Assembly: GCA_031414595.1 (NCBI GenBank)
Contig: JANNVX010000098.1
Coordinates: 96,001-160,000, forward strand
Length of the DNA: 64,000 nucleotides
Source of the DNA: Deinococcales bacterium
Lineage (GTDB): Bacteria > Deinococcota > Deinococci > Deinococcales > JAAFIG01
Direction of reading: 5' to 3'
Part shown: in pieces, positions 4,368-24,072 of the stretch
Position numbering within the stretch: the stretch's first letter is position 1
Layout: every line of letters begins with the position of its first letter
The notes under the pieces: generated by a model
Database searches by the model: none
The model's input: the letters and a program-made list of their open reading frames with translations, nothing else
What the model was told of the DNA's origin: nothing
Translations under genes and position numbers: made by a program

Positions 4368-5120
4368 TTGACCAGTACAGTGCTGGATGTGATTGCCCAA
4401 ACGCCTCTGAAGCCAAAATTTCAAATTCCTTTTCTGGTCTGGATGTACCTTGGGGTGATTGTTTTCTTGGGTGGATTGTACTTATTTGTCCCCAGTGTCC
4501 GTGTTTTTGTGACCCAATGCTTTGAAATTCTGGTCAGCAATGACCGTGGGCGTATCGAAACTTTTGTGGCGGGTTTTGGCTGGTGGGGACCGGTTTTAAT
4601 CATTGGCATGATGATTGCCCAAACGCTCTTAAGTGCCGTACCAATGATTCTGGTGTTGGTGGTGTCGGTACTGGCGTATGGTCCGATTTGGGGCGGCTTA
4701 CTCGGGTGGTGCGGCGCAATGATTGCAGCGATGGTTGGCTACGGGATTGCTCGAGTCTTTGGGGATACTTTACAAGATAAATTTGTGACCCCTAAAATTA
4801 GGGATATTATAGCCCGTAATGTTGCCAGATACGGCGCATTGGCAATTCTGGCGCTGCGTTTATCGCCACTGATTCCATCAGATGGTGTAAGTTTTGTGGC
4901 GGGTTTACTGCGAATGAACTTTGTGACTTTTCTGCTGGGAACGCTTAGCGGTGTTACCCCTTTGGTGATGGTCGTGGCGTATTTTGGCAGTGATTTTGAA
5001 CGCTTGACTGGTTTTGTTATTGGTGTGACGATTTTTAGTTTAACTGCTCTGATTTCATGGGTGATTTACGATGGGTTCATCAAACGCAAGAAGAATATCC
5101 AGCCTGTTGAATACAAATAA
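4368..5120 (+). CDS. TVP38/TMEM64 (VTT/DedA-like) membrane protein
   Basis: YGPIWGGLLGWCGA and LRLSPLIPSDGVSFVAGL motifs; highly hydrophobic. Confidence 0.85.
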   Translation: MTSTVLDVIAQTPLKPKFQIPFLVWMYLGVIVFLGGLYLFVPSVRVFVTQCFEILVSNDRGRIETFVAGFGWWGPVLIIGMMIAQTLLSAVPMILVLVVSVLAYGPIWGGLLGWCGAMIAAMVGYGIARVFGDTLQDKFVTPKIRDIIARNVARYGALAILALRLSPLIPSDGVSFVAGLLRMNFVTFLLGTLSGVTPLVMVVAYFGSDFERLTGFVIGVTIFSLTALISWVIYDGFIKRKKNIQPVEYK

Positions 5121-5136
5121 CGCTAAGTTTTTATGT

Positions 5137-8100
5137 TCATTCGCTCGAGAGTTGTGCCAATAATTTTGCTTGTTCTAAAACAGTATTTGTCGCTGCTTCT
5201 TGTTGCTCTGGTGGATAGCCATACTTACGCAGTACCCGTTTAACCAAACGTCGTAAATTTGCTTGGACTTGTTCACGTACCGCCCAATCAATCGTGGTGT
5301 TATTACGAACAGTTTGTGCTACTTCTAAGGCAATGGTTCGCAGCACATCATCTGCCATGATTTGGTTAGAATCACCGTCTTGCAAGGCATCATAAAAGGC
5401 AATTTCATCCTCGGCAAGCCCCAATGTCTCACTTCGGCTCTGCACATCACGGTAGGCTCGAGCCAAGGCAATTAATTCCTCAATCACTTGGGCGGTTTCT
5501 ATCGCCCGATTCTGATACTTTAACAACGCAGCCTCGAGTTTTTGCGAAAAAGCCTTGGATTGAACCAAATTGCGTTTAGACCCTGTTTTAACTTCATCTT
5601 TCATTAAACGCTCGAGCAGTTCCACGGCTAAATTACGTTGCGGCATATTCTGAACTTCTGCTAGAAATGATTCAGATAAAATACTGATGTCGGGTTTTTT
5701 TAAGCCAGCCGCCGCGAAAATATCAATCACGCCTTCGGGAGCAACCGCACGTTCAACCAAGCGCTGAATTGCATCGTGCAAATCTGAACTGGCAGCTTGA
5801 CTACTTGTTCCGACACGTTTCTCGAAGGTCGCACGCACGGTTTGAAAAAATACAATTTCTTGACGCAATACAAGAGCTTCCTCGAGCGGCACAGATAACG
5901 CAAAGGCTTTCGCCAGTTCAAGCGAGGCTTTAATCAGGCGCTCCTTACCTTTTACTCGGTCTTGAGCCAAAATAAAATCCTGAGCTTCGGGCAGAATTGC
6001 CACGCGGTCAGACGGTGAACCGCTCATAAAATCCGAGTAATCAAAACCATGAAATAAACCACGGCAAATCGAAAGTTTTTCTTGTAAAACCGCAAAAGCT
6101 GCTTCTTGGTCAAGGGTTGGTGCGCCCTGACCGCCGCTACTGGTGTACGTGACCAGTGCCTCACGCAAATTATTGGCTAAACCAAGGTAATCCACCACCA
6201 AACCACCGGGCTTATTACTAAAAACCCGATTGACTCGAGCGATTGCCTGCATTAACCCATGACCACGCATTGGTTTATCCAAGTACATCGTGTGCAAACA
6301 AGGCACATCAAAACCTGTCAGCCACATATCACGCACAATCACCAATTTAAGATTTGAACGATCATCCCGAAAATGCTCGGCAATCGCACGCTGTCGCGCT
6401 TTAGAACGAATATGCGGCTGCCAATTGTCAGGGTCAGAAGCTGCGCCTGTCATCACCACTTTAAGCACACCATCGGTATCGGTTGCGCCAAACCACGCAG
6501 GACGAAGTTTAATCAGTTCATTGTACAAATCCACACAAATACGGCGACTCATACAGACAATCATGCCTTTACCAAGCAGCACTTCTTGCCGAGCTTCAAA
6601 ATGCTGAACTAAATCGGCGGCAATTTGCTCGAGCCGTTTTTTCGTACCAATCAGCGCCTCGAGTTGCGCCCATTTGGATTTTAGTTTTTCTTTACTAAAA
6701 GCCTCTTCTCCTTCGGTTACTTCTTCAAAACCATCATCTAAACGCGGTTTTTCCGACTCGAGCAAATCGAGTTTGGCTAACCTGGACTCATAATAAATCG
6801 GCACAGTTGCGCCATCATCCACTGCCCGTTGCACATCATAAATGTCTATGTACTCACCAAAAATACCACGGGTATTCTTATCGGTACTTTCGACTGGTGT
6901 ACCCGTAAAACCAAGAAACGTGGCATTTGGTAAGGCATCGCGCACATTTTGGGCAAATCCATAACGCAAATCGCCTGTTTGCAAATCCACTTTGGCTTCA
7001 AACCCATACTGGCTACGATGCGCTTCATCGGCAATCACCACGATATTGCGCCGAGGCGACAATTGCGGGAATTTATCACCGCGTTCTTCGGGTAAAAATT
7101 TTTGAATCGTGGTAAAAACCACACCGCCCGCTTCACGCTCGAGCAACAGCCGTAAGTCTGCCCTGTTACCCGCTTGCACAGGGGTTTGACGCAGTAAATC
7201 CTTGCACCTCGAGAAAGTCCCAAACAGTTGGTCGTCTAAATCGTTACGGTCGGTTAAAATGACAATGGTTGGGCTTGCCAGTGCTGCGCTCTGCACCAAG
7301 CCACCCGCAAAGAACACCATCGTTAAACTCTTACCACTTCCTTGGGTATGCCAAACCACACCGCCCTTACCATCACCAATTGCGCTCGAAGCTGCCACGG
7401 TACTTTGCAAGGCTTTTTGCACCGCAAAAAACTGATGATACGCTGCAATTTTCTTATTAATACTCGAGCCGAAATCCTCGAACACAATAAAACCACGCAA
7501 AAACGCCAGTAAGCGCGAGCGTTCAAACACACCCTTAATCAAAGTCTCGAGCGATTCAGACAGCAACTCCGTACCAGACACGGTTTTCCACGGCACAAAA
7601 CGCTCCATTTCTGCGCCAACACAACCAAGCCGTGCCTGCACCCCATCGGAAATGACCAGCAGGGCATTAAAAATAAACAACCGACTAATCTGGTTCTGAT
7701 AGGTTCTAAGCTGCTGATAGGCATTTTCGATGGTGGCTTTACTGTCCGCCGCGTTTTTAAGTTCAATTACGGCAATTGGTAAACCGTTCAGGTAAACCAC
7801 AACATCTGGGCGGCGGTTAATCTGCCCATCTATCACCGTTAATTGATTGACCACCAACCAATTGTTGGCATCTGGATTTTGCCAATCTACCAGCCGCACC
7901 AAAAAACCACGCAGCCCACCATCTTGCAGCACCTCGGTTTCGACACCCTCGGCAAGCAACTTATGAAACGCCCGATTGTTTTGCATTAATGCCGGAAATT
8001 CAGGCGTAGACACACGCCGCACGGCTTCCTCGAGCGCCAAATCTGGGGCAGTTGGATTCAAACGCCGCAACGCATCCCGCAAACGCCCAAGCAGTAATAC

Positions 8101-8232
8101 TTCACGAAAAGATCCGCGTTCGGCACATTTTTCTTCTGGCGCAATACTCGGACCAAATTCGTACTCGTAACCAAGACCGCGCAACCACTCGAGCGAGGCT
8201 TGTTCAACAGTATTTTCGTTAAAAGAAGGCAT
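5137..8232 (-). CDS. hsdR: Type I restriction enzyme, R subunit
   Basis: [20 protein letters not shown] nuclease motif, [34 protein letters not shown]. Confidence 0.97.
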
Positions 8233-8252
8233 TAAAAAAGATTATCGCACAT

Positions 8253-8281
8253 TTGCAGCACAAGACAGATTTTGCTATAAT
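8253..8281 (+). promoter_or_regulatory. Putative sigma70 promoter pointing toward the higA 3' end, divergent from hsdR
   Basis: TTGCAG (8253-8258), 17-bp spacer, TGcTATAAT extended -10 (TATAAT at 8276-8281). Confidence 0.55.
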
Positions 8282-8320
8282 TTTTGTAGTCTCATCTACC
8301 AAGCTGTAGAAAGAGCGTTC

Positions 8321-8351
8321 GGGGTCGTCCAAAAGGGCGACCCTAGTTTTT
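8321..8351 (+). terminator. Hairpin/terminator at the higA stop
   Basis: GGGTCGTCC-AAAA-GGGCGACCC stem followed by TAGTTTTT. Confidence 0.55.
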
Positions 8352-8609
8352 AGAATTCTCGAGTTGATGTGCCTTCGTGAGCGCAAACTGACTCTCGAGA
8401 TTAAGCCAAAAGACGGCTGGCACACGCAAAGCCACCTCTAATTGCAAAGCGGTTTCTGGTGTAATGGACTTTGTACCCTGAATAATTTCGTTAATTGCTG
8501 TGGCAGGTCTGCCCATGCGCCGTGCCAAATCAGCTTGGGTCATACCAAAGCCCTCTAAAATCTCAGCAATGTACTTACCTGGAGCAATAGCCAAATCCGA
8601 GTACAACAC
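8343..8609 (-). CDS. higA: HigA-family (XRE HTH) addiction-module antidote; no cognate toxin adjacent
   Basis: GGAGGTGA RBS then GTG at 8609; AIAPGKYIAEIL..GMTQADLARRMGRP..INEII.G.KSITPETALQLE..FWLNLE is the HigA signature. Confidence 0.85.
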   Translation of the reverse strand: MLYSDLAIAPGKYIAEILEGFGMTQADLARRMGRPATAINEIIQGTKSITPETALQLEVALRVPAVFWLNLESQFALTKAHQLENSKN

Positions 8610-8613
8610 GTTA

Positions 8614-8745
8614 TCACCTCCTCGAGTCAAACCAAACGATGAACATCCAATTCCCCAGAAAGCAATTTGGGAAGCAAAAAATCTCGAGCGTAGCTTGTTC
8701 AACAGTATTTTCGTCAAAAGAAGGCATTGCAAAGATTATCGCACA
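8614..8745 (-). pseudogene. Chimeric remnant: duplicated hsdR 5' end fused at CTCGAG to a duplicated hsdS 3' end
   Basis: 8683-8745 matches 8188-8251 (hsdR start; MPSFDENTVEQATLE vs [15 protein letters not shown]). 8614-8688 matches 9506-9580 at 65/75 nt (hsdS end; RDFLLPKLLSGELDVHRLV* vs RDSLLPKLLSGELDVGNLV*). The two overlap at CTCGAG 8683-8688. Confidence 0.9.
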
Positions 8746-8754
8746 AAAGAAAAA

Positions 8755-9372
8755 TCACCATGTTGTTGGCTTCAGAATTAGAGTACCTAAACCACCCACA
8801 ACAGAATTCGGCAATTGAGCCTTAGATAACTTATCAAGGGGTAACGTAGCGTTCTTATCAGCAGCACTTCGTAATTCTCGAGCCGCCCCACGCATTTTAT
8901 CTCGAGCAGGAACGTAGACCGTTATTTTTATACTCGGAAAACGCTGTTTAATCAACCGTATTGTTGGCACAAGATCAGAATCACCACTGACCAAAACCAT
9001 ACGATCACACAAACCCCTGTACGCATCATCTAACATTCGCAAAGCAATGTTGACATCCGTACCTTTTTCCTCTGGCATCTGAAATTCTTTAAGCCCACCA
9101 AAAGAACAACCTGAAACACGACACTTCACTTTTTTAGTTTTGAATAAACCATATTCAATTTGCAACTTCTGAGAAGCAGCTTCAAGCGCTTGCAAGTAAG
9201 TTGTTTGGTCAGGAGTACCTGTTCGAGCCGTAAAATACCAAACTTGCTGAATGATGTCATCTTGTCGAATCAAACTAAATAATTTCTCGAGGTCAAGCCA
9301 TTTTTCAGACGAACCTTTTAACGCTCCGTAGTACAAGTTGAAACCATCAATATAAATAATACTTCGATTCAT
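8755..9372 (-). CDS. NYN domain (LabA/DUF88, PIN-like) putative ribonuclease
   Basis: IYIDGFNLYYG, EEKGTDVNIA and LVSGDSDLVP motifs with the acidic catalytic residues intact. Confidence 0.9.
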   Translation of the reverse strand: MNRSIIYIDGFNLYYGALKGSSEKWLDLEKLFSLIRQDDIIQQVWYFTARTGTPDQTTYLQALEAASQKLQIEYGLFKTKKVKCRVSGCSFGGLKEFQMPEEKGTDVNIALRMLDDAYRGLCDRMVLVSGDSDLVPTIRLIKQRFPSIKITVYVPARDKMRGAARELRSAADKNATLPLDKLSKAQLPNSVVGGLGTLILKPTTW

Positions 9373-9397
9373 TCTGTTATGTCCTAAATCAACTTAT

Positions 9398-9448
9398 AAA
9401 AAAAAGGCAGCCACTGGAGCTGCCCAACCGGTTGCCCGGGGAGTTGTG
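9398..9448 (-). ncRNA. Candidate ~50-nt structured RNA with intrinsic terminator upstream of the NYN gene
   Basis: Minus strand: ACAACUCC-CCGG-GCAA-CCGG-UUG-GGCAGC-UCCAGUG-GCUGCC-U8. A GNRA-capped hairpin plus a terminator hairpin, lying between the promoter and the NYN RBS. Confidence 0.55.
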
Positions 9449-9453
9449 ACAAG

Positions 9454-9482
9454 AATCTACAAGAAGCATCTTGATTTGTCAA
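9454..9482 (-). promoter_or_regulatory. Sigma70-type promoter of the RNA/NYN unit
   Basis: TTGACA (9482-9477), 17-bp spacer, TAGATT (9459-9454). Confidence 0.7.
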
Positions 9483-9518
9483 CTAACCAAGATGCTCACA
9501 AATGCTCACCTCCTCGAG

Positions 9519-10730
9519 TTAAACCAAATTGCCAACATCCAATTCCCCAGAAAGCAACTTAGGAAGCAATGAATCTCGAGTCGTAGAAAGTCGTACAGAC
9601 TCCAAGCGATTTTCAAGGGACTTCTCATATAAAGGCTGAACAGCTTCTGAAAACCTAAATGCTATCTCTGGTGACGGAACAATGATTTCTGCTTGTAGTA
9701 CATCGTTAGGTCTTGCACGTTGATGACTTTTGGATGTTCCTGTAACTTTTGACGCAAAGATACCTGTGAAAAAATCAGAATTTAAGATGCCATGGACAAA
9801 GAATTTTACCTGCAAATCTCGAGGCATCACAACTAAAAATTCTGTTGAGGCAATAGCGCGACGTTCAGGGTGAATAACAGTCAACCAAACTCGAGGGGTT
9901 TCTGGATTTAATTTCGATACAAGAATAGAATCTGACTGAACCATAAATTTATTACTAAGAATAGACACGCCTAAGTCTTGCATTGGTATTTGTCCAGCAT
10001 CAAAAGCAGGTAAACTAAAATGATCAAAAAGCTCATCTGGAAAAGCCTGCGGGGTCAGTGTTGCTTTTGACAATGTAATAAACTTCTCAAGTGTTCCAAC
10101 CTCCCAGCCTTCTGGAATTTCGCCCATGCTCGAGCTAACAAAAGCACTTGGAAATAACGCTGCCGTAGCCGCATCCACACCCTTTGGCTCGAGACCAAGC
10201 GCTTTGGCTCTGACCACATCAAAATTCACAAACCAAGATTTGAAAAGCGTTTGTGCCATTGCCTCGAGTGTTGCGTTGGTACGGCGGTTCAGTTCGATTT
10301 TATCATCTAAAGCCCCGAGGATGAAAGCGATTTTCTTTTGGGTCTCGAGGGGTGGGAGGTAAACTTTATAAAGATGGACATGATTCCGATTGATTCCAGG
10401 AACGCTGCTTTTGTCATTGAATTGTTGGAAGTCCAATGTTTTCAAAAGATAGTAAACAAAGTGTGGTTCGTTACCATGAAAATCTTTCACCCATAAAGTT
10501 GTGTTCAAAGGAAAGAAATCTTCTTCAATAAAAAATACTTGACCAATTGTTCCGTATCGTCCTGTAACAACACCAGGAGCAGTAACTCGAGCTTCATTAT
10601 GTGTATCTGTTTTACCAGAAGAAGAAATTATCGGAATATTCCCCAACTTTCGATTCTGCTGTGGTAAATCAAAACCTCTTTGTAAAGTCGCAACTTCACC
10701 AAGTGTTATCTCGAGCCAATCCGCATTCAT
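9519..10730 (-). CDS. hsdS: Type I R-M specificity subunit
   Basis: Two TRDs; conserved LPPLETQKKIAFILGALDDKIELNRRTNATLEAMAQTLFKSWFV, GEIPEGW and RDSLLPKLLSGEL. Confidence 0.95.
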   Translation of the reverse strand: MNADWLEITLGEVATLQRGFDLPQQNRKLGNIPIISSSGKTDTHNEARVTAPGVVTGRYGTIGQVFFIEEDFFPLNTTLWVKDFHGNEPHFVYYLLKTLDFQQFNDKSSVPGINRNHVHLYKVYLPPLETQKKIAFILGALDDKIELNRRTNATLEAMAQTLFKSWFVNFDVVRAKALGLEPKGVDAATAALFPSAFVSSSMGEIPEGWEVGTLEKFITLSKATLTPQAFPDELFDHFSLPAFDAGQIPMQDLGVSILSNKFMVQSDSILVSKLNPETPRVWLTVIHPERRAIASTEFLVVMPRDLQVKFFVHGILNSDFFTGIFASKVTGTSKSHQRARPNDVLQAEIIVPSPEIAFRFSEAVQPLYEKSLENRLESVRLSTTRDSLLPKLLSGELDVGNLV

Positions 10731-10763: not shown

Positions 10764-11468
10764 TTACCGCACATGAAAATCCACTCCCAATTTTACCAAT
10801 GCTGCTTCAACACCAATTACACCCCGCGTCTCGAGCCATTTTGTGGGGTTGTTGCGGATGTACCGCGCAATATTCCCAAACATCAGGTCATCACGCACAA
10901 TGACCTCATAATAATTACGTTGCCAAAAACGAACCCCAGAACGCCCCAAATGTTTATTTACCCCGATTGCCGAAATGGATTTGAACGCCCGTATAATTTC
11001 CGATAACGATGCGTGTTTTGTTTTGGTTGTCGTACTGGTTGGGGCGCTGGTTGGGGCGCTGCTTGCCGCGCCCTGCCCTTGACCCTGCCCTTTTAATCCC
11101 GCGTTAATGGGCGCAGCGAGCAGCGCCCCTACTACGGGATTTTGGTCATGGTCACGAACGGGATTTTGGTCATGGTCGTGTATGGGATTTTTGGGATTTG
11201 CCGGGTTGATGATAATAATGCCGTGTACATGGTCGGGCATGATCATAAATTCGTCGGTTTGGATATTAAATCGGTTTGGTAATTCGTTCCATGTGTTTTG
11301 GATAATTTGTCCTATTTCGGTTGGGTTTGCTGTGTTGTTTTGTATGATACTCAAAGTATCGTCGCGGTGTTCGGTACAAATCGTAATGAAGTACGCGCCA
11401 CTCGAGGTGTAGTCGTAGTTTTTTAGTCGAATACTTTGTCGGTGGCGCTTATTTGGGTTGTAGGGCAT
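10764..11468 (-). mobile_element. REP-associated tyrosine transposase (RAYT, Y1 HUH family)
   Basis: RQSIRLKNYDY..GAYFITICT, MPDHVHGII (HUH) and FWQRNYYEVIVR..IARYIRNNP. Overlaps the hsdM stop. Confidence 0.9.
11053..11132. repeat. Inverted pair of GTAG-type REP sequences inside the RAYT ORF
   Basis: Minus strand GTAGGGGCGCTGCTCGCTGCGCCC ... GGGCGCGGCAAGCAGCGCCCC, translated in frame as VGALLAAP...GAASSAPT. Confidence 0.75.
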
Positions 11469-13023
11469 AGCCTAGTTTCTCCAAGTTGGTTTTTATTTGT
11501 TGCTCGAGTATTGCGCTTTGTGCAAATTGGCTGTGTAAGTCTTGGGTTAGTCGTTGCATTTTCTGCTCGAAAGGTTCGCTGTCTGGTTCTTGGGCTTCGA
11601 TGCCAACGTACCGTCCGGGGGTTAGGACGTATCCGTGGGTTTTGATTTCTTCTAGGTTGGCACTTTTGCAGTATCCGGCTTGGTCGGTGTATTGCCCGTG
11701 TCCGTCGCCGCGCCAGTTGTGGTAGGTGCTGGCGATTTGGGCAATGTCTGTGTCGGTAAAGTTGCGGTTGACCCTTGTTTCCATAAACCCAAGTTTTCGG
11801 GCATCTATAAAAAGGGTATGACCGCTTCGGTCACGCAAGGAGCGCCCCTCGAGTCCTCGTCCGTTTTTCTTGTTACGGGCGATAAACCATAAAGCTACGG
11901 GGATTTGAGTGGTGTAAAAAAGCTGTCCGGGCATGGAAACAATGCAGTCCACAAGGTCGGCTTCAATAATTCTCTGGCGGATGTCACCTTCGCCGCTCGA
12001 GTTACTGCTGAGCGAACCGTTAGCAAGCACAAATCCTGCAATCCCATTTGGAGCAAGGTGATAAATCATATGCTGCATCCATGCGTAATTGGCGTTGCTG
12101 TTAGGAGGTGTACCGTGTTGCCAGCGTCCGTCTTCTCGCAAGTTTTCGCCGCCCCAATCAGAAATGTTAAAGGGTGGGTTCGCCAGAATATAATCGGCGC
12201 GTAAATCTGGGTGCTGGTTGTTGTGGAAAGTATCGGCGTTTTGTGTGCCTAGATTTGCCTCGAGTCCGCGAATGGCAAGGTTCATTTTGGCAAGTTTCCA
12301 AGTGGTGGGGTTGCTTTCTTGTCCGTAAATACTGACATCGCCAATTTTTCCACCGTGGGCTTCGACGAACTTTTCGCTACTGACAAACATTCCGCCCGAG
12401 CCACAAGCAGGGTCATAGATTCGTCCTTTGTAGGGTGCAAGCATTTCAACAATCACCCGTACTACGCTGGTGGGGGTGTAGAATTCTCCACCGAGTTTAC
12501 CTTCGGCACTGGCAAATTTGGATAGAAAGTATTCGTAGACTCGCCCAAGCATATCTTTGCTCGAGTTTTTCTGATTTTGCCCAGCTTCGGCACTTGCCAT
12601 TTTCAGGTCACTAAATTTGTCTATCAGTTCACCGAGTTTGGTTTTGTCTAGGGTTGGTCGGGCAAAATCTTTGGGTAGTACACCTTTTAACTGCTTGGGA
12701 TTTTCGTTCTCGAGCAATTCCATGGCTTGGTCTATCAGTGTTCCAATTTTAGAATCCTTAGCGTTTTCTTGTAAGTAAATCCATCGTGCTTTGGGCGGAA
12801 CCCAAAAAATGCCTTCGGCGGCGTATTCGTCTCGGTCTTCGGCGGCTTCTATGCCAAATTCTTGTTTGATGCGCTCAAACTGTCCTGTGAAGGCATCTGA
12901 AATGTATTTTAGGAAAATGAGTCCGAGTACGATGTGTTTGTATTCGGCTGCGTCCATATGACCGCGTAGTTTATCGGCGGCTGCCCAAAGAATACTTTCA
13001 AACTGCCTGTTGGTGGTTTCCAT
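11449..13023 (-). CDS. hsdM: Type I R-M methyltransferase subunit
   Basis: [25 protein letters not shown] and ANPPFN (N6-adenine MTase). Confidence 0.97.
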
Positions 13024-23599: not shown

Positions 23600-23671
23600 A
23601 GTTAAAAGCCGAAAGGTAGGCATCAAGCCAAAAGAAAAAGCCTCCCAGTACGCATAAAATTACAATTAGTC

Positions 23672-23962
23672 AGCCCCTCTCCCGACTCGCTTAGGCTCGC
23701 CACCTGTTGGAATGCCTGTAATTCTCTTCCTGCATTTCCACGAGCTTCGCTCGAACTGTTGTAGTCCCAAATCGCTTCGCTGGGGGAGGGTCTAGGGTAT
23801 AGGTTTTGACTTTATTTGTCCTTAAAAAATTTCTCTGGAACAATGTTTTTTGGTTTTCTAGGATAAAAAACCAAAGCAAAAAGCACCCTGAACAACCCTC
23901 TCCCGCGCTTTTTGGCGGGACGAGGGTAACGAGCCTAAGCGAGTTGGGTGAGGGTTGGGGCG
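23672..23962. repeat. Two degenerate, oppositely oriented CCCTCTCCC...GGGAGGG-type palindromic repeats
   Basis: CCCCTCTCCCGACTCGCTTAGGCTCG (~23674-23699) is near-complementary to CGAGCCTAAGCGAGTTGGGTGAGGG (~23929-23954); internal CCCTCTCCCGC..GCGGGACGAGGG hairpin. Confidence 0.6.
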
Positions 23963-24072
23963 CGGTATGGGCTACTCCATTTTGAGCAATGGGTTTTTGT
24001 TGTTCTGAACTATAAACTTCCTTGAATTGATGCCTATGGGACATCCTTTTAACCTTTTTCCCCTTTGACCTT

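Follow-up and report, generated by a model that had tools for sequence, protein, structure and literature searches.

How do accessory genes come to be embedded between the subunit genes of a restriction-modification (R-M) operon, and how is a second gene added beside the first? This question is raised by a stretch of 64,000 nucleotides (nt) from a Deinococcales bacterium, referred to here as the window, in which a type I R-M operon carries two small genes between hsdS and hsdR. One is an NYN-domain gene and the other is a higA-like helix-turn-helix (HTH) gene, and they are separated by a 132-nt scar (8745-8614) in which a copy of the hsdR start is fused to a copy of the hsdS tail at the palindrome CTCGAG. 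We favor, with a probability of about 0.62, a reading in which an hsdS-NYN-hsdR allele and an hsdS-higA-hsdR allele were joined once by homology-facilitated illegitimate recombination at a 6-bp CTCGAG microhomology. Its central claim, an illegitimate joining of two alleles at CTCGAG, has good support without being proven.

Genes embedded in R-M operons now serve the discovery of immune systems, and their route of arrival is unexplained. The classic embedded defence gene is PrrC in EcoprrI. Defence genes embedded in type I R-M, BREX, DISARM and Hma systems are described in a preprint by Payne et al. (2024; doi 10.1101/2024.01.29.577857), the main text of which advances a "genomic sink" idea, gives no embedding mechanism and contains neither the word "recombination" nor the word "hotspot". 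The hsd locus resembles the genes of that preprint in that accessory genes stand between subunit genes on the same strand, in that its NYN protein is a full-length member of the candidate family HEC-09, and in that SIR2, SoFic and PD-Lambda-2_B-like genes fill the same slot in relatives. It differs from those in the main text of the preprint, the supplements of which may list multi-gene cassettes, in keeping a physical scar of the second gene's addition. Two steps of arrival are thereby on view at one locus. Slot contents are exchanged by way of conserved arms, one a gene end and the other a gene start, and a further gene would then be added by one illegitimate joint that leaves a datable scar.

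Coordinates are positions in the window, and the operon is read on the minus strand. The genome to which the window belongs (4.49 Mb) is designated G000; other G numbers are relatives, L numbers are loci and X numbers are sequencing runs. The relatives examined comprise 19 genomes of the family and one metagenome locus, L028, which was the only locus returned by a metagenome scan with a conserved hsdR-start pattern.

The scar between the NYN and higA-like genes

From 13023 to 5137 the operon reads hsdM, a gene resembling REP-associated tyrosine transposases (RAYT-like), hsdS, the NYN gene, the scar, the higA-like HTH gene and hsdR (Table 1). A preliminary description of the window had given the coordinates and minus-strand order of the elements from hsdS to hsdR, and the repeat search, BLAST and alignments all agree with it. 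Two direct repeats make up the scar. The first (D1) duplicates the hsdS tail, with 8614-8688 and 9506-9580 identical at 65 of 75 nt (87%) in repeat search and alignment. The second (D2) duplicates the hsdR start; the repeat search matched 8188-8238 to 8683-8733 at 90%, and BLAST extends this match to 8188-8251 versus 8683-8745, where 58 of 64 nt (90.6%) are identical. The copies are therefore diverged to the extent originally claimed. Because these are the sole copies of either flank in the 4.49-Mb genome (BLAST E values of 9e-14 to 7e-20), both repeats are far beyond chance.

Alignments show that the two homologies end at one common CTCGAG, at 8683-8688. The match of the hsdR copy to hsdR is lost past this site, and that of the hsdS copy to hsdS does not extend in front of it. 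The natural CTCGAG sites to which the junction had been said to correspond, at 8188-8193 in hsdR and 9575-9580 in hsdS, are present in the alignments and in the list of sites. The block copied from hsdR consists of a TGcGATAAT element, a spacer of 7-8 nt, an ATG and 15 codons. A consensus promoter scan did not call TGcGATAAT; judging by eye, and with the leaderless transcripts of Deinococcus in mind, we take this block to be the hsdR promoter. The copied hsdR frame enters the hsdS tail out of frame, producing only a chimeric open reading frame (ORF) of 37 codons with its stop 4 nt ahead of the higA start, and for this reason we regard the scar as a relic, not as a functional fusion.

Contig C284 of G001, a second metagenome-assembled genome (MAG) of the genus that represents a different species, has this structure too, and its scar is identical. 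Additionally, a contig from an independent study (X6 record 8) covers 8579-9000, bridging the junction, with 0 differences. Since the junction occurs in the G001 MAG and is bridged by this independent contig, the structure is real and not an assembly artefact, and the mis-assembly that the preliminary description had raised as a concern is not seen in the contig data. All of the data are short-read metagenome assemblies and the X5 contigs end at 8660 and 8680, beside the junction, as might be expected of a chimera of two strain alleles. Such a chimera nevertheless has next to no probability, given that a 16.7-kb contig from the probable source study covers the full stretch with no differences, that the X6 contig from another study crosses the junction and that the G001 MAG carries the same structure; moreover, the 6 nt common to the two sides would be too little for a k-mer assembler to mis-join two alleles. 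Among the contigs aligned to the locus the sole joint is the differing hsdS region of a G001-like strain. None of these contigs has a joint that removes the NYN gene or higA, and as contigs drop rare variants they are silent on excision.

A variable slot and the proposed joining of two alleles

The space between hsdS and hsdR is a slot of variable content for embedded accessory genes, most of which are defence candidates. Both the NYN gene and higA are embedded in this sense, being nested between hsdS and hsdR on the same (minus) strand. The NYN protein matches HEC-09 over its full length (residues 1-205 on profile positions 1-202 of 203, E 1.5e-45), a family defined as a gene embedded in Hma systems, the tested representative of which protected against none of the phages used (Payne et al. 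2024). Other genes take this position in relatives. G003 has the order hsdM, a YhcG/DUF1016 gene, hsdS, a SIR2_2 gene and hsdR, with the SIR2 gene overlapping both neighbours by ATGA, and the metagenome contig L028 has hsdS, SoFic and hsdR. In G014 an HTH-M78 peptidase gene of the PD-Lambda-2_B-like type stands ahead of hsdR, on a contig that begins inside the peptidase gene; this slot gene resembles PD-Lambda-2B, in which a peptidase is fused to a HigA-like domain (Vassallo et al. 2022). Thus, where the preliminary description looked to relatives for other cassettes within the same flanks as well as for single-cassette alleles, alignment across relatives supplied the former (SIR2, SoFic and the HTH-M78 peptidase) but not the latter.

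In a different genus of the family (L006, on contig C929 of G008) a homologue of the NYN gene lies directly after hsdS on the opposite strand and is followed by a MazF gene. NYN relatives from other phyla (L030-L034) do not adjoin type I genes.

Movement of the slot contents is evident from the comparison of G000 with G001. These genomes are 90.5% identical over 140 kb aligned, versus 99.6-100% across 8250-9500. Within hsdR, identity is 91-95% in 7000-8249 and is 99-100% again in 5000-5750, while the second recognition region of hsdS is unalignable. In G001-like contigs of X5, X6 and X8 the differences end at 8151, apart from one at 8281, and there are none from there up to 9590. Because the block is near-identical between species that are ~90% identical, it moves by homologous recombination through its conserved flanks; the two-gene block has recently passed between lineages in this way, the crossovers lying in the tail of hsdS and the start of hsdR. 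The second target-recognition region of hsdS, window 9590-10102, measures 508-511 nt in G000 and 514-517 nt in the G001-like strain. The difference is a specificity swap and has sharp edges at the conserved regions.

How the slot came to hold two genes has to be read from the scar. Both parental CTCGAG sites are of long standing in their genes. The hsdR site (codons 14-15, LE of LEWL) is present in G000, G001, G003, G014 and L028, and the hsdS site, at the start of the tail following the target-recognition domain (TRD), is present in G000, G001, G003 and G008. The scar copies differ by 9-13% from the resident flanks, yet the scar is identical in G000 and G001, and this divergence suits a two-allele origin better than a fresh duplication in situ.

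The conserved hsdS tail, together with the hsdR promoter and first codons, serves as homology arms by which related lineages swap slot contents in ordinary homologous recombination. We propose that on one occasion DNA of an hsdS-higA-hsdR allele met an hsdS-NYN-hsdR allele, plausibly following DNA uptake. One end would recombine homologously, most simply within hsdR. At the other end, the resident CTCGAG of hsdR codons 14-15 would be joined illegitimately to the CTCGAG that opens the incoming hsdS tail. The outcome would be a non-functional hsdR'-'hsdS scar that keeps a copy of the hsdR promoter-like element ahead of higA. In this event CTCGAG would most likely be passive, as it is the commonest hexamer of the genome by far and so the likeliest microhomology of any two segments. 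The scar is indeed such as this join, first put forward in the preliminary description, would leave, and the CTCGAG sites it draws on are conserved in related hsdR and hsdS genes.

Homology-facilitated illegitimate recombination takes place in natural transformation of Acinetobacter, Streptococcus pneumoniae and Pseudomonas stutzeri. The hsd locus is alike in having a single homologous anchor together with an illegitimate joint at a microhomology that is short and G+C-rich; here, the 6-bp CTCGAG is common to both sides and hsdR homology resumes downstream. It is also alike in the partial duplication of the anchor region and in that no recombinase gene is required. The hsd case differs in being read from a natural footprint and not from an observed event, in having alleles of one locus as partners, so that the start of one gene is fused to the end of another, and in that the microhomology is the genome's commonest hexamer.

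Exactly the same scar would be left if two complete type I operons of one family in tandem, hsdM-hsdS-NYN-hsdR and then hsdM-hsdS-higA-hsdR, were fused by a deletion of ~6 kb between the CTCGAG of the first hsdR and that close to the end of the second hsdS. This too would be one illegitimate event at a 6-bp microhomology, and the copies would be diverged from the outset. Such a deletion is unlikely, as the tandem state would need an earlier insertion and no tandem operons of this family were found in the genomes examined, with G003, G014 and L028 having one operon each within the extent of their contigs. Quite unlikely as well is a two-step origin in situ, whereby an unequal sister-chromosome crossover at two CTCGAG sites would produce a tandem duplication running from the tail of hsdS across NYN into the start of hsdR, and a higA cassette would later replace the second NYN together with its flanks through homologous exchange. 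Although this route explains the CTCGAG junction equally well and draws on an exchange through the flanks that is directly supported, it calls for two events where one is enough, and genome BLAST found no remnant of a second NYN copy.

CTCGAG abundance and recombination breakpoints

What part would the palindrome have played in the proposed joining of the two alleles? There are 346 CTCGAG sites in the window, or one per 185 bp, versus 7.7 expected from shuffles, and 23,235 sites in the 4.49-Mb genome, or one per 193 bp, which is 7 times the count of the next palindromic hexamer. The abundance reported in the preliminary description is thus borne out, but its figure of about one site per 150 bp is not. 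Sampled stretches of 8 other family genomes from four genera have one CTCGAG per 140-275 bp, versus one per 1284 bp in the loci from other phyla. CTCGAG is a hyper-abundant palindrome of the highly iterated palindrome (HIP) type, over-represented across the lineage. As with HIP1 (GCGATCGC), it is a short palindrome tens of times over-represented lineage-wide, both within and between genes; it differs from HIP1 in its sequence, in its length of 6 nt and in its phylum, the Deinococcota (an uncultured family). In cyanobacteria, links of HIP1 with both illegitimate and site-specific recombination (Elhai 2015, PMC4390886) and with transformation efficiency (Kamoku and Nielsen 2024) have been described. 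In the literature we found no description of CTCGAG as a highly iterated or over-represented genome palindrome, and its abundance in Deinococcota appears undescribed.

This abundance bears directly on the hsd joint. CTCGAG makes up 8-25% of the hexamers common to the 5' zone of hsdR and the 3' zone of hsdS, and a joint on CTCGAG is consequently unsurprising under plain microhomology joining. Abundance alone could explain why the joint fell on CTCGAG, and a single joint is weak evidence for a special role.

A genome-wide enrichment of breakpoints on CTCGAG, suggested in the preliminary description as a check, is present as a modest excess in two comparisons. Within the genome, a test based on 107 non-redundant local direct repeats found CTCGAG in both copies in 11 of 104 perfectly matched terminal 8-mers versus 122 of 2872 interior ones (p 0.005). 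Between genomes, 6 of 97 homology ends of G000 versus 344 kb of G001 and G005 fall on CTCGAG, compared with 2.4% (p 0.028). Homology ends therefore lie on CTCGAG ~2.5 times as often as matched interior sequence, and alignments show about ten local repeats that stop sharply on it. A test of proximity gave no excess, with CTCGAG at most 4 nt from both copies at 22 of 214 boundaries versus 8.5% inside homology. Among 11 large events that distinguish G000 from G001, 5 of 22 boundaries lie within ~10 nt of CTCGAG, versus ~3 expected by our own estimate, which is not significant. The general mechanism put forward in the preliminary description has at most weak support; the breakpoint excess is modest, the share of CTCGAG among common hexamers is high and the single hsd joint is weak evidence.

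One further locus shows the same topology as the hsd scar. At scpB (G000:C86:90115-96631, L060) a 6.3-kb insert between ahpC and scpB encodes a 1283-aa protein with PKD and Endonuclease_NS_2 domains and lies between two diverged copies, each of 87 nt, of the scpB 5' end that are 92% identical. Empty sites are present in G001 and G003, and the homology of the upstream copy to the empty-site allele of G001 stops exactly after CTCGAG.

Several observations weigh against the joining of two alleles at CTCGAG. No NYN-only or higA-only allele of the locus was found in the 19 family genomes and the one metagenome locus, so the two parental alleles are deduced and not seen. The data neither distinguish the donor from the recipient nor place the homologous crossover. 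Homologues of comEC and dprA are present in the genome and would permit DNA uptake, but these genes are widespread and do not show transformation. As to the palindrome, the breakpoint excess is modest, the tests were chosen post hoc and their rows are non-independent; part of the excess could also reflect better conservation of CTCGAG than of its surroundings. Two of the six inter-species cases on CTCGAG stem from a single insertion of a repeat element, and a repeat element of ~420 nt accounts, by its insertions, for most of the large indels that separate G000 from G001. None of the 48 simple gaps of at least 8 nt between G000 and G001 is bounded by a CTCGAG pair, many of these gaps being in poorly alignable stretches.

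CTCGAG could be given a more active part than in the joining proposed here. It is doubtful that the hyper-abundant palindrome is an actively preferred joint for illegitimate recombination in this Deinococcales family, for instance through a CTCGAG-directed nick or break or through guidance by methylation. If this were true, it would amount to an integrase-free way to splice foreign genes beside any homologous anchor, and the hsd scar, the scpB insertion and the approximately ten repeats ending on CTCGAG would be its footprints. The locus in any case offers a concrete and testable connection of recombination breakpoints with a hyper-abundant palindrome, a matter that in its HIP1 version has been open for three decades and now extends to a second phylum.

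Stronger still is the proposal of an active system in which CTCGAG is a dedicated recombination site, used by a site-specific enzyme or directed by methylation, that repeatedly stacks defence cassettes in an integron-like and integrase-free manner. The excess of CTCGAG at homology ends, the local repeats that end sharply on it and the HIP1 precedent for recombination and transformation efficiency (Elhai 2015; Kamoku and Nielsen 2024) might be enlisted for such a system. However, the excess lies within the prediction from hexamer abundance, and stacking, where one repeat's second copy directly adjoins another repeat's first copy, occurs at this locus alone, being seen in 1 of 155 local repeat pairs in the genome. 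Cassette boundaries are also not on CTCGAG; on the hsdS side the boundary follows CTCGAGGAGGTGA, 7 nt past a CTCGAG, and on the hsdR side it falls at TGTGCGATAAT, the promoter-like element. The scar folds no better than shuffled sequence, with z +0.56 for 8600-8760 folded as RNA; 8614-8745 folded as DNA gave z +0.95 and +1.26 on the two strands and has no attC-like fold, and an Rfam scan of 8100-9700 gave no match. The profile of the XhoI-family nuclease (PF04555) has no match in G000, a result that is uninformative as this profile matched none of 14 genomes. An active system of this kind is very unlikely.

The comparison with integrons, made in the preliminary description, accordingly has to be curtailed. 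As in integron arrays, small promoterless or self-contained genes stand in one orientation at one site with a repeated separator. Unlike in integron arrays, there is no IntI gene near the hsd locus, no attC-like hairpin and no attI, and the locus consists of two genes from one event with a gene-fragment scar as separator. The integrase-free part of that description is supported in that no integrase (IntI included) or transposase flanks the operon among the neighbours within ~5 kb. Accumulation of cassettes in the manner of an integron is not supported, given the single stacked case, the boundaries off CTCGAG, the lack of an attC-like fold and the finding of no array of more than two genes at the locus in the 19 family genomes and the one metagenome locus. 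"Integron-like" overstates a single event.

Operon features and other loci

The features of the operon are collected in Table 1. The labels previously given to hsdS, the NYN gene and hsdR are confirmed by Pfam and that of higA by TIGR02607. With Pfam and NCBIfam scores well over cut-offs, the locus is a chromosomal type I R-M system with HsdR, HsdM and HsdS encoded together. The flanking neighbours are housekeeping genes, namely those for D-Tyr-tRNA deacylase, a DUF1844 protein, a VTT-domain protein, a uracil-DNA glycosylase family protein and FKBP.

Table 1. Features of the hsd operon in the window, listed in the minus-strand direction of reading.
Feature	Position	Strand	Basis
hsdM, type I methyltransferase subunit	11449..13023	-	N6_Mtase E 2e-108, HsdM_N
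Y1/REP-associated tyrosine-transposase-like gene, 234 aa, in the hsdM-hsdS slot	10764..11468	-	Y1_Tnp E 1e-9
hsdS, specificity subunit	9519..10730	-	Methylase_S
Resident hsdS tail: CTCGAG 9575-9580, last 19 codons, stop, then CTCGAGGAGGTGA	9506..9580	-	D1 repeat, alignment
NYN cassette head: promoter-like site 9482-9454, terminator-like hairpin 9425-9405	9405..9482	-	consensus scan only
NYN-domain gene, 205 aa, PADLOC candidate family HEC-09	8755..9372	-	NYN (PF01936) E 2e-14; HEC-09 E 1.5e-45
hsdR-start copy: TGcGATAAT promoter-like element, ATG at 8727, 15 codons ending in CTCGAG	8683..8745	-	64 nt at 90.6% to 8188-8251
Chimeric 37-codon ORF spanning the scar	8614..8727	-	translation MPSFDENTVEQATLE + IFCFPNCFLGNWMFIVWFDSRR, then stop
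Junction CTCGAG common to both copies	8683..8688	.	alignments; bridged by X6 record 8
hsdS-tail copy including stop and GGAGGTGA Shine-Dalgarno-like sequence	8614..8688	-	75 nt at 87% to 9506-9580
higA-like HTH gene, 88 aa, without higB partner	8343..8609	-	HTH_3; TIGR02607
GC-rich hairpin 3' of higA	8321..8344	.	terminator-like call, + strand
Resident hsdR start: TGcGATAAT, ATG at 8232, 15 codons ending in CTCGAG 8188-8193	8188..8251	-	repeat search, alignment
hsdR, restriction subunit, 1031 aa	5137..8232	-	HSDR_N, SWI2_SNF2, T1RH-like_C; TIGR00348 594 bits

The HTH protein belongs to the HigA family (TIGR02607, 62.9 bits with a cut-off of 47.7). There is no higB/RelE-like toxin gene adjoining higA upstream, where the scar with its chimeric ORF stands; a genuine higB-higA pair is present elsewhere in the relative G017. 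Over its last 30 residues the higA product has 73% identity with the first visible residues of the 303-aa HTH-M78 peptidase of G014 (window 8355-8429 versus L013 16-90). This homology stops 3 nt past the CTCGAG at 8358-8363 and resumes in the intergenic stretch before hsdR. Judged from these matches, higA may be a shortened PD-Lambda-2B-like gene.

The gap between hsdM and hsdS is variable too, holding the RAYT-like gene in G000 and the YhcG/DUF1016 nuclease gene in G003. The RAYT-like gene overlaps the end of hsdM by 20 nt. Its product scores 62.9 bits with NF047646, under the cut-off of 80, and it has one paralogue in the genome, on C109, with 43% identity.

Several other observations were made in the course of the genome comparisons. 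The contigs of G001 (L036-L055) map as mosaics of different G000 contigs, with L037 mapping to five, which reflects either frequent rearrangement or chimeric MAG contigs. The ~420-nt repeat, present in the window at 23617-24040 (C98:119617-120040), resembles a miniature inverted-repeat transposable element; numerous diverged copies of it occur in G000, in G001 and in further genomes of the genus. A kinase locus on C18 was considered as another example of the hsd topology and was dropped as ambiguous, the repeated 85 nt belonging to a small dispersed element. This element of ~165 nt (C18:73091-73260, L061 1092-1260) starts with CTCGAG, is found at two G001 loci and is absent from the orthologous site of G005. 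A segment of 6.7 kb downstream of it encodes a DDE transposase and a sacsin/NOV_C protein of 1499 aa and also carries a zeta-toxin-like gene.

At C44:11158-12982 (L057) a Gp49/HTH_37 toxin-antitoxin-like pair is situated between a 5'-truncated and a complete copy of an HTH_3 gene, with the homology ending on CTCGAG. Finally, at loci on C99, C26, C54 and C88 (L058, L059, L062 and L063) large proteins have blocks of 180-300 nt in common with short downstream ORFs. Several of these blocks end on CTCGAG, and one of the large proteins has PT-HINT and PT-TG pre-toxin domains; by analogy, these loci resemble the orphan modules of polymorphic toxin loci.

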